Shown here one piece after another: positions 3,303 through 56,382 of a stretch of DNA of 64,000 nt. The translations under genes were made by a program, and so were the position numbers. The notes beneath the pieces are model-generated. The model worked only from the letters and a program-made list of their open reading frames with translations. It was not told the origin of the DNA and did no database searches. The stretch's first letter is position 1. Each line of letters starts with the position of its first letter. The DNA comes from a bacterium (GTDB lineage Bacteria; Cyanobacteriota; Vampirovibrionia; LMEP-6097): assembly GCA_038146805.1 (NCBI GenBank), contig JAYQSH010000003.1:48519-112518 (forward strand), given 5' to 3'.

Positions 3303-3536
3303 GGGCGTGCTTCCAAACCCGTAATAAGTATCTCGAGTCTTTAGATTTGGGCATAAGTAGGGTTTGGTTAGACACGCCTAACAAAAGAATCAAACACCGT
3401 CGCTTAGTGAGTTTCACGCAGTGAAACAAGCTAAGCGTAAGGTCGTTTGTGGGACTGATTTCTAACCCCATTTTCTAGTGATTTTAACATTTCACTGTAT
3501 TTTAAAATTCAAAATGGGGTTTGGAATCAGTCCCAT
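3303..3536 (+). repeat. 234-bp highly structured dispersed repeat, copy 1 (plus orientation)
   Basis: Near-identical copies at 18581..18814 (reverse) and 33755..34177 (interrupted by a MITE). Three extended hairpins: GGGCGTG..CACGCC, CGCTTAG-GTTTCAC-gcag-GTGAAAC-CTAAGCG, and GGGACTGATT..AATCAGTCCC. Confidence 0.85.
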
Positions 3537-3554
3537 TAACAGCACCTAAGATTT

Positions 3555-4871: not shown

Positions 4872-5591
4872 ATGCCAAGAAAAAACAGAAAATTATTCGC
4901 CGACGCTATTTACCATGTATATTCAAGGGGTAATTGCAAAAAAGAAATTTTTAAATCAGACAAAGACAACAAAATATTTTTAAAGATTTGCCAAGTTGCC
5001 GCAAAAAAATTCAATTTTGCAATTTTTTCTTATGCGCTCATGAAAAACCATTATCATCTTTTAATACAAACACCTGATGCAAACCTGCCGGAGATCATGT
5101 GCTTTATCAATCGAACATATGCAAATTACTTCAATAAAGAATATCAACAAGTAGGCTACGTTTTTCAAGGCAGATATAATGCCAAACTAGTTGACGATAA
5201 TGAATACTTGAGGACTTTAATTGCTTATATAAATCTTAACCCCTATGCCGCAAACATTGTCACTGAACCAAGTACATACAAATGGTCAAGTTGCAAAGAA
5301 CTATTAATGCAAAAAGACTTCAATGGTTTTTTGCATATTAACTATGTTTTAAAACTCACTGGAGATTTTGCCAGCTTTTTAGAGGCACACATCTACGATA
5401 AAAACTTAAAAATGGACTCAGAAATTTTTTACCTGACAAGCAAACTAAAATCACTTTTAAATTCAGACGCATTTGAAAAATTAAATAGCAAATCTCAGGT
5501 AAGAAAACTCAAAGAAGAATATAAGTTAACAGCAAAAGAAATAAGCTCGGTTATAAACTTGTCTAGAAGCAGTGTTTATAGATTAATCTAA
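4872..5591 (+). CDS. REP-associated tyrosine transposase (RAYT), IS200/IS605-type Y1 HUH enzyme with C-terminal HTH-like extension
   Basis: HUH motif HYHLL, catalytic-Tyr context FQGRYNAKLVDD, flanked on both sides by inverted REP units. Confidence 0.75.
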   Translation: MPRKNRKLFADAIYHVYSRGNCKKEIFKSDKDNKIFLKICQVAAKKFNFAIFSYALMKNHYHLLIQTPDANLPEIMCFINRTYANYFNKEYQQVGYVFQGRYNAKLVDDNEYLRTLIAYINLNPYAANIVTEPSTYKWSSCKELLMQKDFNGFLHINYVLKLTGDFASFLEAHIYDKNLKMDSEIFYLTSKLKSLLNSDAFEKLNSKSQVRKLKEEYKLTAKEISSVINLSRSSVYRLI

Positions 5592-5593
5592 TA

Positions 5594-5664
5594 AATGAGA
5601 CAAAAATAACCCGGTCCGAAGTGTCTTATAAATGAGACAAAAATGACACGGTCCGAAGTGTCTT
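5594..5664 (-). repeat. REP doublet (two tandem 34-bp units) downstream of RAYT, opposite orientation to the upstream unit
   Basis: aatgagacaaaaataacccggtccgaagtgtctta then aatgagacaaaaatgacacggtccgaagtgtctta. Confidence 0.8.
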
Positions 5665-5908
5665 AGTAGACAGAAACTAATTTTCTGCCACGTTTTTGTT
5701 CAAATTTTACTTTACCTTCAATAATTGAGTACAAAGTATCATCACGACCGCGACGCACATTGTTACCCGGGTGAAACTTAGTACCACGTTGACGAACGAT
5801 AATGTTACCAGCAATAACCACTTGACCGTCATAACGCTTAACTCCAAGTCTTTTAGACTCTGAATCTCTTCCGTTTTTAGTACTACCTACACCTTTTTTT
5901 GATGCCAT
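5663..5908 (-). CDS. rpmA: 50S ribosomal protein L27
   Basis: [25 protein letters not shown]...[11 protein letters not shown]; no N-terminal propeptide. Confidence 0.95.
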
Positions 5909-18814: not shown

Positions 18815-19336
18815 ATTATTAATAGATCAATTAAACTCACTTGATTCAGTCTAGGAAGTTTAGGTTCGTCATATTTAGAGGAGGTTAAGTATATATATCA
18901 CAAGTATGGCACTCAGCCGTTTTACTGCAGGACCAATAGAAGTTGCATTTAATGTTTGCACTACCAATGCAACTTATGAAATGTAGGATATCTCACAAAG
19001 ACTCGTTGGTGGTTATGAAACAACAAGCATGAATGTTATGGCAGAGATAATGAGAAATGTTAGGATTTCTCTTTTAACTCTAGAGTATCACTACTATAGG
19101 AGTACTTATTGGGCTTAAAATAGCTAAGCTAGATATTAAGGTTGCTGGTAAAATCAAAAGACTTATATAATTTATAAGAAAAGAATTTTCACAGCAATTA
19201 GGTACCATTTCAGCAGATAAAGTTCACTCAACAAGAAATAATTATCTAGGTTAGTTGCTAAATAACTTCACAAAAAAACTAGATAACTTTCTGTTAAAAC
19301 ATAGTTTTAAAACTAAATAAGAAAAAGGGAGAGTAG

Positions 19337-19537
19337 ATGAACGATTTTGACCAGATCGAACTACATTTTGAAAATCAAAATATTGATAAAACTAAATCTT
19401 GCTTAGAAAAACCTTATAGAGTCATTAGGATAAAACTAAACGATAATGTCAAACTCAGCAAATATATTCTAAAAAGACTACTTGTCAAAAAGAACCAATT
19501 TGAAAATTACCCTATATTTGATAGATTTCTAAATTAA
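19337..19537 (+). CDS. possible small protein (66 aa)
   Basis: ORF preceded by aagggagag SD-like sequence; lies in an AT-rich non-coding stretch, so weak. Confidence 0.25.
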   Translation: MNDFDQIELHFENQNIDKTKSCLEKPYRVIRIKLNDNVKLSKYILKRLLVKKNQFENYPIFDRFLN

Positions 19538-19584
19538 CAAGGCTATTTTGAGCTTTATAAAGGTTTTGGGCATAATACAGTCAT

Positions 19585-20358
19585 ATGAAAATCCTTATTT
19601 CAAACGATGATGGAATTTGGGCTGAAGGAATTAGCAGCCTAAGTTCGGTACTTGCAAAAAGCCACGAAGTTTATGTCTGCGCGCCTGATCGCGAGCGCTC
19701 AGCAACTGGACATTCAATGAGCTTACACAAACCTCTAATGGTTACACCAATGAAAGCATCTGACATCAACAGCAATGCTCAAGCCGCTTTTATGACATCT
19801 GGCACACCTGCTGATTGTGTCAAAATTTCACTTGGCGCACTTTTTAAAGAAATAGAGTTTGATTTGATGGTATCTGGCATCAACCATGGTCCTAACCTCG
19901 GAGTTGACGTATTATACTCAGGCACTGTGTCTGCGGCAATGGAAGCGATGCTTTTTGGTTTACCTTCTATTGCTTTTTCGCTTTACAGCTACACCTCAAA
20001 AGAATTTGACGATGCGGCACATTGGGCAAAACAATTTATAGAAAAAAACAAAATCCAAAAACATATACCGGCAAAATCATTTTTGAATATAAATATTCCG
20101 CCCGGAGCTCGCGATAATTACAAAGGCGTTGAAGTAACCAAACTTGGTAACAGAGCCTATTGCGAAAACTACGAAGAGCGTCAAGACCCACGAGGTAACA
20201 AATACTTTTGGCTTGCTGGCGCACCAATAGAAGGACTTGAAACCGAAGGTACAGATGGTTGGGCATTGATGAACGGAAAAGTTTCAATTACGCCTGTGCT
20301 TTTTGATATGACCTATAGAGATCAAATTGAAACCTTAAAAAGCAATTTAAAAATATAA
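19585..20358 (+). CDS. surE: 5'/3'-nucleotidase SurE
   Basis: MKILISNDDGIWAEGISSL...PDRERSATGHSMSL. Confidence 0.93.
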   Translation: MKILISNDDGIWAEGISSLSSVLAKSHEVYVCAPDRERSATGHSMSLHKPLMVTPMKASDINSNAQAAFMTSGTPADCVKISLGALFKEIEFDLMVSGINHGPNLGVDVLYSGTVSAAMEAMLFGLPSIAFSLYSYTSKEFDDAAHWAKQFIEKNKIQKHIPAKSFLNINIPPGARDNYKGVEVTKLGNRAYCENYEERQDPRGNKYFWLAGAPIEGLETEGTDGWALMNGKVSITPVLFDMTYRDQIETLKSNLKI

Positions 20359-20373
20359 GCATCGTGCCAGTCA

Positions 20374-20555
20374 TAAACTGATGCTCTAAACTCCACCTGA
20401 ATCTTATAAAAGCCTTTAAAACAAAGATATATTAAGAGTTTTTTGATACATACAGTGCCATACTGTAAATACAAAATAAAATCATCAAAAGTCTTTTAGT
20501 TATATTGGTTTTTTGAAGATTTATATTTTCAGGTGGAGTTTAGAGCATCAGTTTG
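20374..20555. mobile_element. MITE (~182 bp) carrying the IS1-family terminal inverted repeats taaactgatgctctaaactccacctg / caggtggagtttagagcatcagttt
   Basis: Same termini as the transposase-bearing IS at 22878..23919; internal sequence ~90% identical to the copy at 53971..54152. Confidence 0.85.
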
Positions 20556-22115: not shown

Positions 22116-22886
22116 TTGAAAAAACAGCCGCATTTAATTTTAATTTTATTGATACTTTTTTTAAGTAGCCAATCTCTACATGCCAAATTTTGTGAAACAA
22201 TAAACGAAGCGGATTTGTGCTTGAACAGTCTTTTAGAGCATAAACTTTTTGATTCTTCAGCAAAATTACACGCAAATTATTTGCCAATACTTGCTTTAAG
22301 AGCACTCGCTCACGCTGATATCTATAAAAAGAAAAAAGATTTTAAAATTGAAAGATTTTTTTTTGAGAATGATAAAGTTTATGAAAAAGATACAGACGAG
22401 CTTCCATACGCAAGTTTAATCGGTGTTGGCAAAGTTTCAGGCAATGGTTTTTTTGGTAGAGAAGTTGAATTCGCAGGCACTTTAAACGCACATACAGTCA
22501 AATACAAAAACGTAATGAAATTTAGTTTGCCGCGCAGAGCTGACATGCAAGTAAATGCTTGGCTTGATGAAATTGAGTTTTTAGATTTACAAATTCAAAG
22601 TGATGCAGACAAAATGACCAATGATGTAAGTGGTAAATATTTTGGTAAAGCTGTAAAGTACCATACTGCACACAGAGATAGTTTTGGTATCCTCGCTGAT
22701 ATCCCTTACAAATTACACACAGAAGGTAAAGTAAAAGAAGATGATTTATTTCATGCAGTTACTGATGGATTGATAGACGAAAACAAAGTAACTGGAGCTG
22801 TCAATTTTATAGAAAAAAATCATTACTACTCTATTGAGCATTATGGACCAATTAGAGTTGAAACTCATATAAGAATCTTAAACTGA
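22116..22886 (+). CDS. secreted hypothetical protein (signal peptide MKKQPHLILILLILFLSSQSLHA); stop codon supplied by the IS terminus
   Basis: ORF ends in TGA inside the IS left terminal repeat (aaactgatg). Confidence 0.55.
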   Translation: MKKQPHLILILLILFLSSQSLHAKFCETINEADLCLNSLLEHKLFDSSAKLHANYLPILALRALAHADIYKKKKDFKIERFFFENDKVYEKDTDELPYASLIGVGKVSGNGFFGREVEFAGTLNAHTVKYKNVMKFSLPRRADMQVNAWLDEIEFLDLQIQSDADKMTNDVSGKYFGKAVKYHTAHRDSFGILADIPYKLHTEGKVKEDDLFHAVTDGLIDENKVTGAVNFIEKNHYYSIEHYGPIRVETHIRILN

Positions 22887-23919
22887 TGCTCTAAACTCCA
22901 CCTAAGCCAAAAATCTCATACTAAAAAACCACGTAAAGAAATCTCCTCATTATCAATCACCATATTATGAAAACAAGCATAAATATGCATTAAATGTTCA
23001 AGATTGACAATCTTTTTTGTGGTGCACCAAGTTTTACGACTGAGCCTTTTTACATTGTCGCGAAACATAGCGGCACTATGATTCAAGCTAAAAAGTGGAT
23101 CCCAACCAGTTGCCTTGAGCTCACCTTGCCCCACGACACAGCCACGTCTCCCTTTGTATGACAGTGTTGTAGCGCCTGCGAAAAATTCTTGAATGAGCGC
23201 AGGGTAATGCCAAGATTTATCAGAAATAAATAGCGTTAATTTGTTACAACAAGCTTGAAGTTCACTAAACATTTTGCGCAGTGTTTTTTTGCGCTCACAA
23301 CTACGTGCGCCATATTTTTTCTTGGCAATTTCAGCCAAATGCCCTTTAGCGCGAATTTTGCCAACGTTTACGCTTAATATTTTTCTGCTTTGCATTTCAA
23401 CGGCAATTGCCATTGTCAAAGGCTTACACTTAGTGTGTTCAAAGCTTTCCATTTCATCAAAAACCAAATCTGTAATCGGCGGGATTTCTTCGCGGGATTT
23501 GGCTAATTTTTTTCTTGCACATAAACCCAAGCGCACTAATCTTCTAGAAATTGTGCGAGGTACGACGCTTAGCACAAGCGCACAAGCCCGCTCCGAAAGC
23601 CCTTTGCAGAGTAGCTTAAAGCATGATTTATTGATAAGTCTTTTTTGTAATCGGTAATCAAACCTAAGTGTCTGCTCAGAAAAATTTTTATTACAGCTTT
23701 TACAAAAAAATCTTTGTATGATTTTTCTATCTGACTTTCTAATATGTGTGCCTTTTTTGATGACTTTTTCTCTGTTTTTACAGCAGGGCATGGGTATTGT
23801 TTCATTTTGAATCCTCCAAGTACAAAATATTAGACAATACTTGACTTTTTATGGGGGGTCAAAAGGCTTTTTTTGATGCTAATTAGGTTTTATTAGGTGG
23901 AGTTTAGAGCAGCAGTTAA
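22878..23919 (-). mobile_element. IS1-family insertion sequence (~1.04 kb) with 26-bp terminal inverted repeats
   Basis: TIRs ttaaactgatgctctaaactccacct (22878..22903) and aggtggagtttagagcagcagttaa (23894..23919) bracket a single transposase ORF. Confidence 0.85.
22916..23791 (-). CDS. IS1-family transposase (single-ORF InsAB-like)
   Basis: N-terminal zinc-finger CKNREK...CKSCNKNF then an HTH (LSERACALVLSVVPRTISRRL) then a DDE-like region; architecture matches IS1 InsA-InsB. Confidence 0.8.
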   Translation of the reverse strand: MPCCKNREKVIKKGTHIRKSDRKIIQRFFCKSCNKNFSEQTLRFDYRLQKRLINKSCFKLLCKGLSERACALVLSVVPRTISRRLVRLGLCARKKLAKSREEIPPITDLVFDEMESFEHTKCKPLTMAIAVEMQSRKILSVNVGKIRAKGHLAEIAKKKYGARSCERKKTLRKMFSELQACCNKLTLFISDKSWHYPALIQEFFAGATTLSYKGRRGCVVGQGELKATGWDPLFSLNHSAAMFRDNVKRLSRKTWCTTKKIVNLEHLMHIYACFHNMVIDNEEISLRGFLV

Positions 23920-25175
23920 TTATGACTATAGTAAGCAATAATTTCTTCTAAAACAATCTGTGTATGAGCATAATTCATACCACCTTGAATATAACCCACA
24001 AAAGGCTCACGTAAAGGACCATCGCAAGAAAGTTCAATAGACGAGCCTTCAATAAAAGACCCACTTGCCATAATCACTTCATCATCATAGCCGCTAATCT
24101 GGTCAGGAATTGGACTAAACATTGAATTAACAGGACTGTTTTTTTGTACCAACTCACAAAATTTTATAAGTTTTTCTTTGCTATTAAATTTCACTGCTTG
24201 AATCACATCATTACGTTGTGCATCAAAAGCTGGAATGGTTTGCAAATCAAGATCTTGAAAAACTTTAGCCGCAAGACTCATGCCCTTGAGTGCTTCAGAT
24301 ACAACCAAAGGAGCCAAAAACACTCCTTGTAACATCAAACGTGTTTGATCAAACATGCAACCACCGTGTATACCAATGCCCGGAGCTGTTGCATACTCTG
24401 CAGCATTTTCAACTAACTCTTTTTTGCCAGCAATATAAGCACCAGCGGCAACGATACCAGCTCCGGGATTTTTTATGAGTGAGCCCGCAATAATATCAGC
24501 ACCTAAATCAGTTGGTTCTTGTCTTTGCGTAAATTCGCCATAGCAATTATCGACAAATACAATTAAATCTTGATTGATATTTTTAACTATTTTAATTAGC
24601 CTTGCTAATGACTCAATAGTATATGATGAGCGCCATTCATAGCCACGAGAACGTTGTATAAAAATCATTTTTGTTTTGTCTGTGATTGCTGTTTTGATTA
24701 ATTTGCTAAGCTCAGCATCTGAATTTTCTTCAACAAAATCTGGATTAATTTGAGCAAGAATTTTAAAATCAACAGCAAATTTAGAACTTAATTTTTTAAA
24801 AGAAGTTTGCAATGTATCATAAGGCAAACCCAGTGCTAATAATTGATCATGTGCATTAAGGTTACCCCAAACAGCCGCAGTTATAGCATGAGTTCCAGAA
24901 ACCAATTGTGGACGCACTAAAGCAGATTGACAATTAAAAATATTGGCAAAAACCTCATCAAGTTTTTCTTTACCAAGGTCATCATATCCATAGCCAGTAA
25001 CCCAAGAAAAATGCATATTTTGGATTTGTGCATTTTGAAAAGCTTGTAAAACTTTTTTTGTATTAAAAGTTTTAATCTCATCAATTTCTTGCCAGATCGA
25101 TGCACGTAAAACATTAATCTGTTCTGCTAAATCTAATTGTTTCTTGTTTGTTTGCGTAGTTTGAATACCAACCAT
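23916..25175 (-). CDS. PLP-dependent enzyme of the methionine gamma-lyase / aluminium-resistance-protein family
   Basis: 419 aa; overall similarity to the YnbB-type family; stop codon overlaps the IS right end. Confidence 0.6.
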   Translation of the reverse strand: MVGIQTTQTNKKQLDLAEQINVLRASIWQEIDEIKTFNTKKVLQAFQNAQIQNMHFSWVTGYGYDDLGKEKLDEVFANIFNCQSALVRPQLVSGTHAITAAVWGNLNAHDQLLALGLPYDTLQTSFKKLSSKFAVDFKILAQINPDFVEENSDAELSKLIKTAITDKTKMIFIQRSRGYEWRSSYTIESLARLIKIVKNINQDLIVFVDNCYGEFTQRQEPTDLGADIIAGSLIKNPGAGIVAAGAYIAGKKELVENAAEYATAPGIGIHGGCMFDQTRLMLQGVFLAPLVVSEALKGMSLAAKVFQDLDLQTIPAFDAQRNDVIQAVKFNSKEKLIKFCELVQKNSPVNSMFSPIPDQISGYDDEVIMASGSFIEGSSIELSCDGPLREPFVGYIQGGMNYAHTQIVLEEIIAYYSHN

Positions 25176-25190
25176 GCTTAGATAATATCA

Positions 25191-25226
25191 CTTGAGACAC
25201 TGCGGACCGTGTCATTTTTGTCCTAT
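25191..25226 (+). repeat. REP unit (variant gagacactgcggaccgtgtcatttttgtcctat)
   Basis: Member of the RAYT-associated REP family. Confidence 0.7.
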
Positions 25227-25298
25227 TTATTATTTAATGTCAAACAAAACACAAAAATAGAGGCGTTTTCAATAAAATTAAGATAGTTGGTAAAAAAA

Positions 25299-25484
25299 TT
25301 AAACTGCTGCTCTAAACTCCACCTGACTAGTTAAAAACTATTGTAAATAGTGTGTTTTGCAGAGTTTTTTTAGGAGATAGTCAGGTGCTTATGTAATTAC
25401 AAAATAATAATCCCTTAAATTCAAATATTGTAAGGCTTTTTTTTTGATTTTTTATTTTCAGGTGGAGTTTAAAGCATCAGTTTA
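25299..25484. mobile_element. MITE (~186 bp) with IS1-family TIRs
   Basis: ttaaactgctgctctaaactccacctg ... caggtggagtttaaagcatcagttta. Confidence 0.8.
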
Positions 25485-31246: not shown

Positions 31247-31265
31247 TATTGAGCGAAATTAAAAA

Positions 31266-31692
31266 AATGAGTTAATAATAAGCCGGGTTCTGTATGGCTT
31301 GCGCCATTAACTATCATCTATCTGGACCTAAGCATTACTGCTAGGTTCATGCGGAATTCACAGACCCAAAAAGTATACGAGTAATTCCTTTTTGGTTAAG
31401 CCTGCTTACCTTGCAGCTTCAGCGGGGTTTACCGAGCCTAAGCTTCTCAACTTAGCTGGTGAGCCCTTACCTCACCTTTACACCCTTACCTTTGTGACAC
31501 CGAACTTTGATTTAAGACCAAAGATGCTAAAGCAAAGTTCGATATCACAATTCATCCTTGCGGATTAAGGCGGTATTTTTCTGTGGCACTATCCTCACGT
31601 TCACACGTACTGGCAATTAACCAGCAACCTACACTCATATACTGCCCGGACTTTCCTCTCAAAAAATTGAGCGATAGTCTAATTAACTCAAA
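31266..31692 (-). ncRNA. rnpB: RNase P RNA, bacterial type A
   Basis: Reverse strand carries GAGGAAAGTCCGGGC (P4), AGTGCCACAGAAAAATACCGCC, AAGGTAAGGGTGTAAAGGTGAGGTAAGGGCTCACCAGC, GGTAAACCCCGCTGAAGC and the 3' ACAGAACCCGGCTTAT. P1 pairs GAGTTAAT (31682..31689) with ATTAACTC (31269..31276). GC content is well above the surroundings. Confidence 0.88.
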
Positions 31693-33733: not shown

Positions 33734-33754
33734 TCCAAGAGTAAAACAAATAAA

Positions 33755-34177
33755 GGGCGTGCTTCCAAACCCGTAATAAGTATCTCGAGTCTTTAGATTT
33801 GGGCATAAGTAGGGTTTGGTTAGACACGCCTAACAAAAGAATCAAACACCGCCGCTTAGTGAGTTTCACGCAGTGAAACAAGCTAAGCCTAAGGTCGTTT
33901 GTGGGACTGATTTCTGACCCCATTTGCTAGTGATTTTAACATTTCACTGTATTTTAAAATTCACTAACTGATGCTCTAAACTCCACCTGGAAATATAAAT
34001 CTTCAAAAAACCTATATAAATAAAAGACTTTTGACAATTTTATTTTGTATTTAGCGTGGCGCTACATGAATCAAAAAAGTCATAAAATACCATTGTTTTA
34101 AAGGCTTTTATAAGATTCAGGTGGAGTTTAGAGCATCAGTTAGTAAAATTCAAAATGGGGTTTGGAATCAGTCCCAT
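33755..34177 (+). repeat. 234-bp structured repeat, copy 3, split by a MITE insertion (33964..34143) with 9-bp target duplication taaaattca
   Basis: 33755..33963 matches the 5' 200 bp of the element, 34153..34177 matches the last 25 bp; taaaattca is present on both sides of the MITE. Confidence 0.85.
33964..34143. mobile_element. MITE (~180 bp) with IS1-family TIRs, inserted into repeat copy 3
   Basis: ctaactgatgctctaaactccacctg ... caggtggagtttagagcatcagttag; internal sequence is the reverse complement of the 20374/53971 MITEs. Confidence 0.85.
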
Positions 34178-34208
34178 AAACTAAGGGTTTTTGCATAAAT
34201 TCATTTAA

Positions 34209-34685
34209 TCATGAGACAAAATCAACACGGTCCGCAGTGTCGCATTGTCTGAAAGCTTCATAGAACACTGTTTGCACAGTACTTGCCAAATTTAAACTGC
34301 GTGAGTTTTTTGAGCGCATCGGCACAGTAATAGCTTGCTCTTGAAATTCATCTAATAATGCTTGTGGTAACCCTCTTGTTTCTGGACCAAAAACCAAAAA
34401 ATCATTTTTTTGATATTCCACATGCCAAAAACTTTTTTTTGCTTTTGTTGTCAGTAACCAAAACCTTGCTTCTGGATTTTGTGTCAAAAAATCTTGCCAA
34501 TTTTCATATAACTTAAGTTCTAGATATTGCCAGTAGTCTAAAGCTGAGCGCTTTAGGTATTTGTCTGATATTTCAAAACCCAAGGGCTTTATCAAATGTA
34601 AAACCAAATCATTAGAGACACACATGCGAGCAATATTGCCTGTGTTTTGCGGTATTTCTGGTTGGTATAAAACAATATTTATCAT
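34209..34685 (-). CDS. trmL: tRNA (cytidine/uridine-2'-O)-methyltransferase, SpoU/TrmL type
   Basis: 158 aa; MINIVLYQPEIPQNTGNIARMC...FGPETRGLP; SPOUT family. Confidence 0.78.
   Translation of the reverse strand: MINIVLYQPEIPQNTGNIARMCVSNDLVLHLIKPLGFEISDKYLKRSALDYWQYLELKLYENWQDFLTQNPEARFWLLTTKAKKSFWHVEYQKNDFLVFGPETRGLPQALLDEFQEQAITVPMRSKNSRSLNLASTVQTVFYEAFRQCDTADRVDFVS
34211..34243 (-). repeat. REP unit
   Basis: atgagacaaaatcaacacggtccgcagtgtcgc. Confidence 0.7.
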
Positions 34686-35673: not shown

Positions 35674-36549
35674 TTAAGCTGCATAAACATTAATAATCTG
35701 CGCTTCTTGTTTTAATAAATCACGCATTTGAGCTTCAATAGCAAAAGCAGTTTCTTTGTCGATACAAGGAAGCTCTGTAAGCTCTATATAATCAGGTTTT
35801 GTCGTTTGCTGTGCTTCGCCATAGTGATTGCCACGAGTAGCAAGCCAATACTCACCGCTTTTGCTGATTGGTTTTGGGCGAGTTGGCGTGTTTATTTGAA
35901 TATTAAAAACCTCAATCTCATTTATCAACTGACATAGAGCGTGTATATAATTAAAATCTTTGGCAAATTTTTCTAAAAACATAATTTGCAATTGCAATTT
36001 AGTGCGCTCTGGATCAATAATAGATTTTAAAGCTTTGATTCCTTTTATAATATTTTTTAGCGAAAGCTCAGCATGTGCTTGATTAATAACTTGCAAATAA
36101 TGGTCATTAGGTGCATCTAATTTTAGTGACACTAAATCTGCTTTGGCTAAGTTGTCACGAACTCTTGCATCGTTCAAAGTAGTAGCATTTGTCAAAACAG
36201 AAATTTTTGTACTAGTGATTTTTTTGAGTTCATCAATAACTTCACCTAAGTTCAATGCTAGACTAGGTTCGCCGGAACCTGCAAAAGTAATAACATCTAG
36301 TTGGGCAAGATTAAAAACCTGATTCTTCAAAGCTAAATTAAAATCATGCAAAATTTTTGTAGTCTGTTGATAAATTTTAATTTCGGTACTTAGATTTTGT
36401 ATTTTGCCAAGTTGACAATAAACACAATTAAACGAACAAGTAGAAATCTCACCAATAGGGTCTATGCCCAAGGAAGTTCCAGCTCGCCAAGATTTAACAG
36501 GCCCATAGATCGAAAAAAAACTTTCTTGATTAATTTGCTCATTTGGCAT
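35674..36549 (-). CDS. radical SAM domain protein
   Basis: CxxxCxxC cluster CSFNCVYCQLG near the N-terminus, glycine-rich SAM motif FAGSGEP. Confidence 0.7.
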   Translation of the reverse strand: MPNEQINQESFFSIYGPVKSWRAGTSLGIDPIGEISTCSFNCVYCQLGKIQNLSTEIKIYQQTTKILHDFNLALKNQVFNLAQLDVITFAGSGEPSLALNLGEVIDELKKITSTKISVLTNATTLNDARVRDNLAKADLVSLKLDAPNDHYLQVINQAHAELSLKNIIKGIKALKSIIDPERTKLQLQIMFLEKFAKDFNYIHALCQLINEIEVFNIQINTPTRPKPISKSGEYWLATRGNHYGEAQQTTKPDYIELTELPCIDKETAFAIEAQMRDLLKQEAQIINVYAA

Positions 36550-45751: not shown

Positions 45752-45849
45752 AGCAACTAGTAATACAATTTTATACATTAAACCATATTAACTTATAACC
45801 AAGAAGACACTGCTAAAAAATTATCTATATAGATAAAAGGAATATTTTA

Positions 45850-46395
45850 ATGGGTCACGCAGCATCAATACTTAAAAGACGATACACCAATTTTTCAGAT
45901 CTCTGAAGAGAATAAAAACTTCGCTGATTTAGGAGTTCTAGGAAGCATGGTGCTTCTAGATACTATGGGAGATGATCTTTCTATTGTGAACGCTGCAAGA
46001 GTTTCTTATGCTTCTGAATCTGATGCATTTGAAGAGCGTGACAAAAAACTAGTTAAGTATTTAGCGAAGCACAAACACTGGACTCCATTTGAACAAAACT
46101 CTCTTAAGTCTAAAGTTTAGTGTCCTATCTATATTGCTCGTCAATGGATGAAACATAGATGCTGGTTTTTCAACGAGATCTCTGTTCGCTATACTATTTT
46201 TGATAACACAGTTTATAAACCAGATGATTTTCGTAAGTAAGCGTTGCTTCTGAAGATGAAATAAACCAATAAAAACTGCAGCGATTTATTCAAGTGCAAC
46301 AAAAATTCGCCGAAGATTCATATAACCAATTACTTGAATTAGGGTTTTTGGGAGAACAAGCCCGTGGAGTGCTTCCCGTAGGTTCGCGCACTTAG
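45850..46395 (+). pseudogene. decayed thyX copy (frameshifts and in-frame stops), ~80% identical to intact thyX
   Basis: atgggtcacgcagcatcaatacttaaa... parallels 47536 onwards; TAG/TAA stops, e.g. at 46118 and 46237. Confidence 0.8.
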
Positions 46396-46465
46396 ATTAA
46401 CACGTCCCTCCCCCGAACCTTGTCATTTTATCTCATTTTTTTAAAAGCTTTAATTTAAAAAAAGT

Positions 46466-46729
46466 CTATGCCGCTATCCCAGAAGCAAATATGGGTTTTG
46501 CTTTATCATAGAGTTTTTGTATAAACTCCATCATAGAGACCTTTGCATCAAAAGGCTTTTCAAAAGCATTTACAAAACTGTCTGTAAAAGATTCAAAGAA
46601 TGGACTCACGACATCGCGATCTTGATGAGTATTGTTATTCTCATCAGGACTCGCAAGAGCTTCTTGATACAATCGAGCAGTCTCATCTCCTAAGATTTTT
46701 GCTCTTTGCATTCTAGGCAAACCTGTCAA
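46466..46729 (-). CDS. hypothetical small protein (87 aa), paralog of 47109..47459
   Basis: About 90% identical to the downstream copy; part of the ~640-bp tandem duplication. Confidence 0.4.
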   Translation of the reverse strand: MTGLPRMQRAKILGDETARLYQEALASPDENNNTHQDRDVVSPFFESFTDSFVNAFEKPFDAKVSMMEFIQKLYDKAKPIFASGIAA

Positions 46730-46772
46730 TTTTGGATTTTAGTCAAAAATGCTATCGTGATTTAAATTAATT

Positions 46773-47039
46773 CTATATTGCTCGTCAATGGATGAAACAA
46801 AGATGCTGGTTTTTCAACGAGATCTCTGTTCGCTATACTATTTTGATAACACAGTTTATAAACCAGATGATTTTCGTAAGTAAGCGTTGCTTCTGAAGAT
46901 GAAATAAAACCAATAAAAACTGTAGCGATTTATTCAAGTGCAACAAAAATTCGCCGAAGATTCATATCACCAATTACTTGAATTAGGGTTTTTGGGAGAA
47001 CAAGCCCGTGGAGTGCTTCCCGTAGGTTCGCGCACTTAG
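46773..47039 (+). pseudogene. second internal thyX fragment (tandem duplicate of 46127..46395)
   Basis: ctatattgctcgtcaatggatgaaaca...gtaggttcgcgcacttag repeated. Confidence 0.75.
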
Positions 47040-47108
47040 ATTAACACGTCCCTCCCCCGAACCTTGTCATTTTATCTCATTTTTTTAAAAGCTTTAATTT
47101 AAAAAAGT

Positions 47109-47459
47109 CTATGCCGCTATCCCAGAAGCAAATATGGGTTTTGCTTTATCATAGAGTTTTTGTATAAACTCCATCATAGAGACCTTTGCATCAAAAGGCT
47201 TTTCAAAAGCATTTACAAAACTGTCTGTAAAAGATTTAAAGAATGGACTCACGACATCGCGATCTTGATGAGTATTGTTATGCTCATCAGGACACGCAAG
47301 AGCTTCTTGATACAATCGAGCAATCTCACGTCCTAAGATTTTTGCTTTTTGCATTCTAGACAAACCTGTCAATTTTGGATTTTGGTCAAAAATGCTATCG
47401 TGATTTAAATTAATAGATATCATAAAATTAAATAATAACAAATAATATATGTAATACAT
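47109..47459 (-). CDS. hypothetical small protein (116 aa as called; the AT-rich N-terminus is probably not coding)
   Basis: Paralog of 46466..46729. Confidence 0.4.
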   Translation of the reverse strand: MYYIYYLLLFNFMISINLNHDSIFDQNPKLTGLSRMQKAKILGREIARLYQEALACPDEHNNTHQDRDVVSPFFKSFTDSFVNAFEKPFDAKVSMMEFIQKLYDKAKPIFASGIAA

Positions 47460-47535
47460 TAAATAATATAAATAATATTTTTATAATCATAAAAACTGAT
47501 AGAATAATATTATCTAATTAAAAGGAAATTTACAC

Positions 47536-48321
47536 ATGGGTCACGCTGCATCAATACTTAAAAACGATAAACCGATATTTGAAATCGATAGTGAAAATCC
47601 ACGACTAGCCAATATGGGAGTTCTTGGCACAATGGAACTACTCGATGTTATGGGTGATGATCTTAGTATTGTCAATGCCGCAAGAGTTTCTTATGCTTCT
47701 GAATCAAATGCCTTTGAAGAAAAAGACAAAAAGCTAGTTAAGTATCTAGCAAAGCACAAACACTGGACCCCCTTTGAACAAAACTCTCTAAAATTTAGAG
47801 TTAAGTGCCCTATTTATATTGCACGTCAATGGATGAAACATAGATGCTGGGTCTTTAACGAAATTTCTGCTCGTTATACTATTTTTGATAACACTGTTTA
47901 TAAACCTGATGAATTTAGAAAACAAGCAGTGCGCAATAAACAAGCAAGTGATGCCTCAGAAGGTGAAATCAATCAAGAACTTGCAAACGAAATTTACGAA
48001 CAAGCAACAAAAACTGCTATTGATTCTTACAACAAACTACTCGAACTTGGTGTCTGCCGTGAACAAGCTCGGGGAGTGCTTCCTGTGGGTTCACATACAG
48101 AATTTATTACAACAGTAAACCTAAGAAACTTTATGCATTGGTATATGCTTCGTGCACCAAAAGATGCACAATGGGAAATCCAACAATACGCACACGCCGC
48201 TCTTAAATTAATTGAACCAAAGTTTCCTGTTGCAATTGAATGTTTTAAAGAGCTACAAGAAGAAGCATTAGAAGATGCTATCAAACTCAAAGAAATCAAA
48301 GATAGTTTAAAAAACAACTAG
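47536..48321 (+). CDS. thyX: flavin-dependent thymidylate synthase
   Basis: ThyX signature KHRCWVFNEISARYT (RHR-x7-S type), 261 aa. Confidence 0.88.
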   Translation: MGHAASILKNDKPIFEIDSENPRLANMGVLGTMELLDVMGDDLSIVNAARVSYASESNAFEEKDKKLVKYLAKHKHWTPFEQNSLKFRVKCPIYIARQWMKHRCWVFNEISARYTIFDNTVYKPDEFRKQAVRNKQASDASEGEINQELANEIYEQATKTAIDSYNKLLELGVCREQARGVLPVGSHTEFITTVNLRNFMHWYMLRAPKDAQWEIQQYAHAALKLIEPKFPVAIECFKELQEEALEDAIKLKEIKDSLKNN

Positions 48322-52345: not shown

Positions 52346-52510
52346 AGAAAAATTATAGCTTTAACTTAGGTGCTGTTAAAAAATTTGGAGAACAAAGCTT
52401 TTTAGTGCCAAAAAAAGCTTCAGTTTACTCGTTGTAAATGATGATTTTGAGACCGCAGACTAGGGCAGTTATCGGGATTTGTTAACACTAGCTAAGTTAA
52501 TTTATTGAAT

Positions 52511-52544
52511 CATGAGACAAAATCAACACGGTCCGAAGTGTCTT
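52511..52544 (-). repeat. REP unit flanked by a 32-bp direct repeat (52465..52496 and 52545..52576)
   Basis: catgagacaaaatcaacacggtccgaagtgtctt; direct repeat gcagttatcgggatttgttaacactagctaag on both sides. Confidence 0.75.
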
Positions 52545-53892: not shown

Positions 53893-53962
53893 GACACTTC
53901 GGACCGTGTCATTTTTGTCTCATTTATAAGACACTTCGGACCGTGTCATTTTTGTCTCATTT
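53890..53962 (+). repeat. REP doublet (two tandem 36-bp units taagacacttcggaccgtgtcatttttgtctcattta)
   Basis: Overlaps the serS stop codon. Confidence 0.8.
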
Positions 53963-53970
53963 ATGATTTT

Positions 53971-54152
53971 TAAACTGATGCTCTAAACTCCACCTGAATC
54001 TTATAAAAGCCTTTAAAACAATGATATTTTAAGACTTTTTTGATTCATATAGCGCCACGCTGTAAATACAAAATAAAATTGTCAAAAGTCTTTTAGTTAT
54101 ATAGGTTTTTTGAAGATTTATATTTCCAGGTGGAGTTTAGAGCATCAGTTAG
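53971..54152. mobile_element. MITE (~182 bp) with IS1-family TIRs
   Basis: Nearly identical to the copy at 20374..20555. Confidence 0.85.
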
Positions 54153-54167
54153 TATGATTTTTAGCAA

Positions 54168-56197: not shown

Positions 56198-56382
56198 TAA
56201 ACTGATGCCCTAAACTCCACCTGAAAATAAAATCAATAAAAAAAACCCTACAATACCTGAATTTAAGGGACTTTTATTTTGTAATTACACAACCCCCCCA
56301 ACTATCTTCTAAATAAACTCTGTAAAACTCTTTATTTTCAATAGTTTTCAACTATTTAGGTGGAGTTTAGGGCAGCAGTTTG
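56198..56382. mobile_element. MITE (~185 bp) with slightly diverged IS1-family TIRs
   Basis: taaactgatgccctaaactccacctg ... taggtggagtttagggcagcagtttg. Confidence 0.8.

Follow-up and report, generated by a model that had tools for sequence, protein, structure and literature searches.

How can an insertion sequence (IS) come to lie exactly between two convergent genes, with the stop codons of both genes inside its own ends, and what does this do to the proteins that the two genes encode? The question is raised by an element at 22879 to 23919 of the window, as the whole stretch of bacterial DNA analysed here is called (64 kb; 34% G+C; about 77% covered by long open reading frames, ORFs), which also holds five short, transposase-less elements of the kind called MITEs (miniature transposable elements with inverted repeats). 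The account that very probably holds is that of an IS1-like IS with MITEs mobilised in trans, in which an old insertion at the ends of two convergent genes supplies stop codons from its terminal inverted repeats (TIRs) and has lost its target duplication by later rearrangement. The host appears to be a Melainabacteria/Vampirovibrionia-like genome, the best named matches of its SerS protein being metagenome-assembled genomes (MAGs) of Candidatus Melainabacteria and Cyanobacteriota with 69-73% identity.

One insertion sequence and its ends

The TIR core GCTCTAAACTCCACCT (16 nt, at most two mismatches) occurs 12 times in the window, where 0.02 matches are expected and none of 100 shuffled sequences reaches 12. 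The 12 cores pair up into six elements, one IS and five MITEs, which is the inventory that the original prediction had drawn up; its coordinates hold to within one base, the IS starting at 22879 and not 22878 and one MITE at 25300 and not 25299. The termini of the elements lie 9 nt beyond the TIR core, with the consensus YWAACTGMT, and are set by perfect 9-bp duplications that abut them in several copies. In the case of the IS, the ends were placed by comparison with a second full-length copy, which lies between plsX and a gene for a 116-aa protein in related metagenome contigs (L081, L083, L086-L088) and bears the perfect duplication AGAACTTTA. The features of the locus are as follows.

22116 to 22886, plus strand: gene for a 256-aa secreted-type hypothetical protein, whose last residue (N) and stop are encoded by the TIR
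22879 to 23919: full-length IS, 1041 bp (1042 bp in intact copies elsewhere), transposase on the minus strand
22879 to 22905, plus strand: TIR at the 3' end of the transposase gene, TAAACTGATGCTCTAAACTCCACCTAA, holding the TGA (22884-22886) of the 256-aa gene
22916 to 23805, minus strand: transposase gene with its native start, ATG at 23805-23803, and GGAGG upstream
23893 to 23919, minus strand: TIR at the 5' end of the transposase gene, TTAACTGCTGCTCTAAACTCCACCTAA (minus strand), holding the TAA (complement of 23916-23918) of the gamma-lyase-like gene
23916 to 25175, minus strand: gene of the PF06838 Met_gamma_lyase family (YnbB-like), 419 aa, in which the last base of the final codon and the stop are encoded by the TIR

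Two other ORFs, at 35674 and 62158 (291 and 296 aa), were considered as extra copies of the transposase and rejected, as they are unrelated genes.

Two convergent genes that stop inside the repeats

The two TIRs of the IS are 27 nt long and differ at two positions. Read inward, each of the three frames of the left TIR (22879 to 22905) reaches a stop after 0, 1 or 4 codons, and in the frames actually used inward translation halts within a few codons in both TIRs. In its TIR, the TGA of the 256-aa gene occupies positions 6-8; in the opposite TIR, positions 2-4 form the TAA of the gamma-lyase-like gene. Both flanking stops had been predicted to fall within or at the terminal repeats, and both are found inside them. 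A scan for promoters and terminators between 19500 and 26000 gave counts equal to those of shuffled sequences.

The 256-aa protein ends in ...HIRILN*, its orthologues in ...[IV]L*, ...VID* or ...VLD*, which amounts to the native length plus one Asn. Each of the 15 listed members of the cluster of this protein has the HIRILN ending, and the junction on this side is identical in all strains of the species cluster. The gamma-lyase-like gene is complete, its match to PF06838 (E = 1.7e-153) spanning profile positions 5-402 of 405, and its end exists in three alleles among 13 cluster members: AYYSHN (9 of 13, the window included), AYFRTY (3 of 13; L082, L098) and AYFKN (1 of 13; L097). The L097 strain retains the native TAG 14 nt outside the IS, while the AYYSHN and AYFRTY alleles each lack 15 nt at that spot and run into the TAA of the TIR; L098 resembles L097 minus the 15 nt that adjoin the IS. 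Both proteins are essentially native in length, and the change therefore concerns 1-5 terminal residues and is not a truncation. The suggestion that the insertion had altered the C-termini of both proteins thus stands in part: there are three alleles, two of which read into the TIR, but nothing has been cut off. Comparison with orthologous C-termini, proposed beforehand as a way to expose a coincidental placement, found native lengths and yet element-borne stops, with the exception of the gamma-lyase-like gene of L097 and its native TAG.

What the site looked like before the insertion can be approached through IS-free syntenic relatives, in whose retrieved loci no TIR core is present. The two genes overlap by 14 bp in one of them (L094) and by 26 bp in another (L095); in others they lie 142 bp apart (L093) or are split by a GIY-YIG gene (L001). 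A direct join of the two IS flanks was rejected as the ancestral state because it yields extensions of 10 aa and about 46 aa. A join with a 1-nt overlap would give HIRIL* and a 19-bp overlap of the genes, and is a plausible, though not a provable, ancestral form.

The steps that would lead to the present locus can be put together from these comparisons. The transposase presumably binds the 27-bp TIRs with their terminus TAAACTGA, and staggered 9-bp cutting would generate the target duplication. The IS would have entered the overlap, or a very short spacer, of the two convergent genes, where the inward-frame stops of the TIRs would end both genes inside the TIRs with C-termini that are almost native; insertion into overlapping gene ends is tolerable because the terminal repeats supply the stops. 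Later small rearrangements by the IS end would have wiped out the target duplication and, by the same events, given rise to the three C-terminal alleles of the gamma-lyase-like protein. The window copy would then have lost its activity through a frameshift, while the second copy in sister strains points to recent activity of the element.

All of this has been seen before: an IS and its cognate MITEs, duplications of 9 bp, TIRs that hold stops in every frame, and the fusion of the 3' end of a host gene to a TIR. In Acinetobacter, MITEAba12 shares the TIRs of its parent ISAba12, makes 9-bp duplications and carries stops in all frames, and the 3' end of a host gene has become fused to a TIR that supplies the stop, the gene being cut by 398 aa and turned into a pseudogene (PMC6382973). 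That is a different IS, and the two convergent genes described here retain their native length. Less common are two convergent genes that both read into TIRs at their overlap, and allelic C-termini produced by rearrangements of an IS end. The locus reveals no new mechanism; it is a clean and well-documented case of an IS with its MITEs in a poorly studied lineage of non-photosynthetic Cyanobacteria-like MAGs. The five MITEs and the three junction alleles are also ready markers for strain typing in salt-marsh and marine metagenomes that contain this species.

The same convergent junction holds a 97-aa GIY-YIG nuclease-type gene at 3310-3603 of L001, in a relative that is 66% identical and whose source MAG is labelled Gammaproteobacteria, probably by mistake. 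The junction may attract different mobile genes.

Target duplications and the short elements

The five MITEs fall into two subfamilies, A and B. They are listed here with their perfect duplications and with two unoccupied copies of one target.

20374 to 20555, plus strand: MITE of subfamily A, 182 bp, between surE and a gene for a 170-aa protein on the same strand; no recognisable duplication
33964 to 34143, minus strand: MITE of subfamily A, 180 bp, inverted relative to the 20374 copy, between convergent genes and within copy 3 of a repeat of about 236 bp
33955-33963 and 34144-34152: perfect 9-bp duplication TAAAATTCA of the 33964 MITE
53971 to 54152, plus strand: MITE of subfamily A, 182 bp, where the serS and LptF/G-like permease genes converge
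53962-53970 and 54153-54161: perfect 9-bp duplication TATGATTTT of the 53971 MITE
25300 to 25484, plus strand: MITE of subfamily B, 185 bp, within the promoter region from which the gamma-lyase-like gene and a Na/Ca-exchanger gene diverge
56198 to 56382, minus strand: MITE of subfamily B, 185 bp, inverted relative to the 25300 copy, in the promoter region of divergent genes; no duplication recognisable
3503 to 3511 (plus strand, repeat copy 1) and 18606-18614 (minus strand, repeat copy 2): empty paralogous target TAAAATTCA, whose flanks on either side agree with those of the 33964 MITE

All five are intergenic and both internal orientations occur, as had been predicted. The two B copies are found in divergent promoter regions, and two A copies lie, like the IS, at convergent gene ends, numbers that are too small for a conclusion. 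The A copies are 89-94% identical to each other and the B copies about 85%, while the two subfamilies are only about 70% alike, chiefly through their TIRs.

Perfect 9-bp duplications flank seven insertions in the window and in related metagenome contigs, one full IS copy and six MITEs. The duplication already noted at 33964 was confirmed on both sides of that MITE, and the one at 53971 can be added to it. Four more MITEs with perfect duplications come from JGI contigs (L100, L106, L107, L109), with TATTGCTTA, TGTTTCTTA and twice TAAAATTCA between differing flanks; the TIR pattern as such is present in 14 JGI metagenome contigs of four sample series. In the related strain L082 the 25300 MITE has a near-duplication, TAAAATTCA against TAAATTACA; the left junction in the window contains 18 additional nt. 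Put in one orientation, the targets begin with TAA or TAT (TAAAATTCA, TAAGAATCT, TAAAGTTCT, TAAGCAATA, TAAGAAACA, TATGATTTT), and there is a modest preference for A/T-rich 9-mers, often with TAA first, or TTA last on the other strand. The 9-mer TAAAATTCA occurs six times in the window against three expected and has been struck in no fewer than three independent events. The first two copies of the 236-bp repeat, in which this target is still empty, serve as an internal empty-site control for the insertion of the 33964 MITE.

No duplication surrounds the window IS (tagtcataa against agattctta). Recombination between copies was considered as the cause; swapping flanks among the elements gives no match either, and such recombination therefore does not explain the missing duplication. 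In L097, the flank AGTTCATA and the opposite flank AGATTCTTA agree at 7 of 9 positions with one indel and may be a decayed duplication. Junction variation in sister strains is seen at the IS and at two MITEs, at 25300 (the 18 nt extra in the window, and another arrangement in L105) and at 53971 (in L108).

The ends of the MITEs are those of the IS over the terminal 25-27 nt, and the common TIRs together with the equal length of the duplications make it most likely that the transposase of the IS mobilises both subfamilies in trans. As RNA, the MITEs are predicted to fold into long hairpins (z = -10.7 and -4.9; for the 53971 copy -68.5 kcal/mol, z = -10.7), which follow from the TIRs. Inside, the best match to the IS interior is a stretch of 36 nt in the 20374 copy that corresponds to transposase codons 5-16 and is equalled in 3 of 500 shuffles; the interiors of the other copies contain short colinear patches that do not rise above shuffles. 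The common TIRs and the common length of the duplications are firm; the derivation of the MITEs from the IS, as proposed by the original prediction, is weakly supported, the short patches only suggesting an origin by internal deletion.

Two further observations concern the same sequences. In L107 (5498-5790), a complete MITE flanked by TAAAATTCA is preceded, 111 bp upstream, by a solo TIR, which may be a truncated or nested copy. The repeat of about 236 bp is present in three copies that are 97-98% identical (3303-3538, plus strand; 18580-18813, minus strand; 33754-33963 plus 34144-34177, plus strand), the third being split by the 33964 MITE. It has no ORF and is predicted to form three long hairpins (-102.8 kcal/mol, z = -12.4); Rfam holds no family for it, only sub-threshold miRNA-hairpin noise, and it could be either a family of non-coding RNA genes or another non-autonomous element.

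The transposase and its place beside IS1

The transposase consists of an N-terminal CxxC...CxxC zinc finger, a helix-turn-helix (HTH) and a catalytic domain with an RNase-H fold, encoded in all intact copies by a single ORF of 296 aa with no programmed frameshift. In the window copy, one nucleotide is missing from the C-run at 23786-23788 (CCCC in all other copies), and the frame shifts at codon 7; the 291-aa ORF at 22916 to 23791 restarts at an internal ATG and is without the first Cys of CxxC. This frameshift is a lesion and not a site of the A6C type. Among the 15 listed members of the 90% cluster of the transposase (28 members), 13 have 296 aa, one is a fragment of 165 aa and the window copy alone has 291 aa. 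Because of the frameshift at codon 7, the window copy is probably inactive.

The wider family comprises 3167 metagenomic proteins at E <= 0.001, the top matches being about 295 aa long with no Pfam domain on record, and some members carry the JGI label "IS1 family transposase". A Pfam scan of the transposase found nothing at E <= 0.01 and no DDE_Tnp_IS1 (PF03400), and scans of 40 individual members gave weak HTH matches and, in 6 of the 40, weak zinc-ribbon matches. By NCBIfam, the IS1 model NF033558 matches all 40 members and is the best transposase model for each of them (best E = 5.9e-20, too weak for the cut-off of 100 bits); the window copy scores 48.9 bits and the copy P0001 50.1 bits. 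The model NF050000 for the IS1/IS1595 zinc domain matches 25 of the 40, and the 12 NCBIfam families with matches at E <= 0.01 include no IS1595 model. A profile search of PDB sequences returned chance zinc-finger matches only, tblastn against plasmids found one distant IS1 family match, in Emticicia (22% identity), and a literature search turned up no paper on this transposase clade or on IS1-like elements in Melainabacteria.

Alignment of the family profile with InsAB' of E. coli by hhalign gave a probability of 94.9% (E = 4.6e-8) over residues 4-93, that is, the zinc finger and HTH. This alignment against a single InsAB' sequence covered the N-terminal third only, and the catalytic domain was therefore compared through MAFFT and through its fold. 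A MAFFT alignment with InsAB' and the annotated IS1 transposase of Emticicia is colinear over the whole protein: the invariant D117 and D196 align with the IS1 aspartates, the motif R-L-x-R-K/R-S/T is kept, and the proteins of the clade contain two additional segments, each of about 20 aa. The AlphaFold2 model (pLDDT 84.7) matches the cores of ISCth4, Mos1 and retroviral integrases, which confirms the RNase-H fold. As to a third catalytic residue, the Glu of IS1 lies 7 residues before a conserved Arg, and the fixed spacing to R249 would put the invariant N242 at this position, as against A246 by MAFFT. Alternative candidates are the invariant E229 and D236 in the second family-specific insertion, where the model is weakest (pLDDT 54-76).

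An Oligoflexus MAG and TARA contigs carry homologous IS with the same terminus TAAACTGA, which is therefore a feature of the clade. A resemblance of the TIR ACTGATGCTCTAAACT to the IS1 inverted repeat GGTGATGCTGCCAACT is absent from other clade members and was treated as chance.

The homology of the transposase to InsAB' is secure and the element is an autonomous IS and a divergent single-ORF relative of IS1, whose strict membership of the IS1 family is not established. With IS1 (IS1A of E. coli) it shares the small size of about 0.8-1 kb, the homologous CxxC...CxxC zinc finger and HTH, the two catalytic Asp, the R-L-x-R-K/R-S/T motif and the 9-bp duplication. The differences are that IS1 has insA and insB with a -1 frameshift whereas the present element has a single ORF, that its product has 232 aa and not 296 with two insertions of about 20 aa, that its termini read GGTGATG in place of TAAACTGA, and that its catalytic Glu is without a counterpart here; moreover, the present element is under the NCBIfam cut-off and invisible to Pfam. 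IS1 is classically known for a tendency toward adjacent deletions, and ISfinder, which describes IS1-family TIRs as starting with GGnnnTG, already admits single-ORF subgroups of IS1. The assignment to the IS1 family made by the original prediction is thus supported by the distant homology, the colinear InsAB'-like single ORF and the 9-bp duplications, but not by the absent Pfam match, the 49-50 bits against a cut-off of 100, the lack of the Glu, termini that do not follow GGnnnTG, or the lack of a programmed insA/insB frameshift.

A possible, if on balance unlikely, alternative is that the element belongs to a separate family in the IS1/IS1595 group of zinc-finger DDE transposases, of the DD(N) type or with a relocated third residue. 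The IS1595 family reportedly includes, after Siguier et al. in 2009, the ISPna2, ISH4 and IS1595 groups with DDNK motifs, and DDN-type IS1595 elements have an Asn at the third catalytic position. Like these, the present element has a single-ORF transposase with an N-terminal zinc ribbon and a length of about 1 kb, and its third catalytic position may be an Asn with a basic residue 7 positions later (N242...R249). It differs from them in its termini, in giving no significant match to an IS1595 model, only the weak zinc-ribbon in 6 of 40 members, and in a duplication of 9 bp where 8 bp is typical of IS1595. A family of its own would also account for the failure of PF03400, the low NCBIfam scores, the missing Glu, the two family-specific insertions and termini that, unlike GGTGATG, are kept as TAAACTGA across distant members of a clade with more than 3000 metagenomic proteins. 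Against it stand the IS1 model as the best match of every member tested and the lack of any IS1595 model among the matched families, the colinearity of the whole protein with IS1, a duplication of the IS1 length and the single-ORF subgroups already admitted to IS1. More doubtful still is the combined proposal that this is a distinct family, sister to IS1/IS1595, and that the long-resident copy shows a general behaviour of such a family, whose TIR stops suit it to 3' overlaps of convergent genes and whose ends repeatedly acquire small indels that make C-terminal alleles.

A large IS1-like clade that escapes both Pfam and the NCBIfam threshold is another of the less common points of this case. 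Since standard domain libraries and annotation thresholds miss the clade, such IS stay unannotated in MAGs.

Age, activity and remaining alternatives

The window IS is 98.5-98.9% identical to metagenome copies and 92.3% to the L097 copy. Between window and L097 the IS has diverged by 7.7% and the adjacent gene by 6.0%, with synonymous divergence (dS) of 0.31-0.33 and 0.28, respectively, and a ratio of nonsynonymous to synonymous divergence (dN/dS) of 0.11-0.13 for the transposase. The IS is present at this site in every strain sampled. The divergence of IS and neighbouring gene in parallel and the junction that the strains share point to a single old insertion, orthologous and passed on vertically. 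Between the copies at this site and those at plsX, 0-6 nt are different, and the duplication of the plsX copy is perfect; transposition in sister strains is therefore recent.

The long persistence of the IS could also mean that it has been co-opted, its ends being kept as gene terminators and its transposase selected for a function in the host. The left TIR in 15 of 15 listed members of the 256-aa cluster, a divergence equal to that of the neighbouring gene, a transposase dN/dS of 0.11 and the lack of a duplication to guide precise excision would all fit. However, the window copy is frameshifted and no host phenotype is indicated; purifying selection is expected of any IS lineage that still transposes, as the second copy shows it recently did, and gene conversion among copies can also keep ORFs intact. 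Co-option is for these reasons improbable.

Several observations weigh against the account of an old IS1-like insertion with trans-mobilised MITEs. No IS-free strain of the same species was found in the 90% cluster of either flanking protein, and the pre-insertion sequence has no unique reconstruction. Target duplications are lacking at the window IS and at three of the five window MITEs, the MITE interiors resemble the IS in short patches only, and there is no Glu at the IS1 catalytic position, where MAFFT pairs the IS1 Glu with A246. Metagenome contigs that span a 1-kb repeat can be chimeric, and two contigs (L082, L089) join the gamma-lyase flank to the flank of the other IS site. The frameshift at codon 7 lies in a homopolymer run and could stem from misassembly, and the taxonomy of the host derives solely from the named SerS matches.

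Two other readings are far weaker. That the 180-bp elements are independent structured or REP-like (repetitive extragenic palindromic) repeats which share an end sequence with the IS and are not moved by its transposase would agree with interiors largely unrelated to the IS, very stable hairpins and the presence of other structured repeats in the genome, but is very improbable given terminal 25-27 nt identical to the IS TIRs down to the variable outermost two bases, duplications of equal length, empty sites that show a cut-in insertion, and a hairpin that follows from the TIRs. That the IS lies in the spacer by coincidence, with native stops kept and gene products unchanged, is hardly credible: both proteins do have the native length of their orthologues and L097 has the native gamma-lyase TAG outside the IS, but both stops occupy conserved TIR positions of the copies that define the element ends, the extra Asn and the TIR-borne TGA are found in 15 of 15 listed members of the 256-aa cluster, 12 of 13 gamma-lyase cluster members read into the TIR, and joining the flanks does not restore native ends; for the 256-aa gene this reading is already contradicted.

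Neighbouring sequence features

In sister contigs (L082, L083, L089, L108), the 116-aa gene and an M48 peptidase gene lie between the IS, or plsX, and the 236-bp repeat, a place taken by other ORFs in the window, and L108 places a flank of the 33964 type beside a MITE of the 53971 type. The arrangements in these four contigs are either real repeat-mediated rearrangements or assembly chimeras.

The window contains further repeats. A REP-like palindromic unit, TGAGACAAAAATGACACGGTCCGnAGTGTC, is found at gene ends (53893-53970, 5591-5665, 25190-25235, about 34205-34241 and 52499-52542; 90-97% identical) and is sometimes tandem, with two units right after serS beside the 53971 MITE. A duplication of 220 bp (18262-18480 and 19566-19783; 92% identical) spans the start of surE; one of its copies lies within a 2-kb stretch without long ORFs (17543-19584) that also houses copy 2 of the 236-bp repeat. 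No tRNA gene is present in the 64 kb, and the sole Rfam match at gathering threshold is a bacterial class A RNase P RNA at 31264-31690 on the minus strand (213.5 bits). Finally, a tandem array at 45760-48092 is built of units of about 644 bp, of which 46128-46771 and 46772-47414 are 97.7% identical and the outer ones 74-85%; it overlaps the ORFs at 47109-47459 (minus strand) and 47536-48321 (plus strand).

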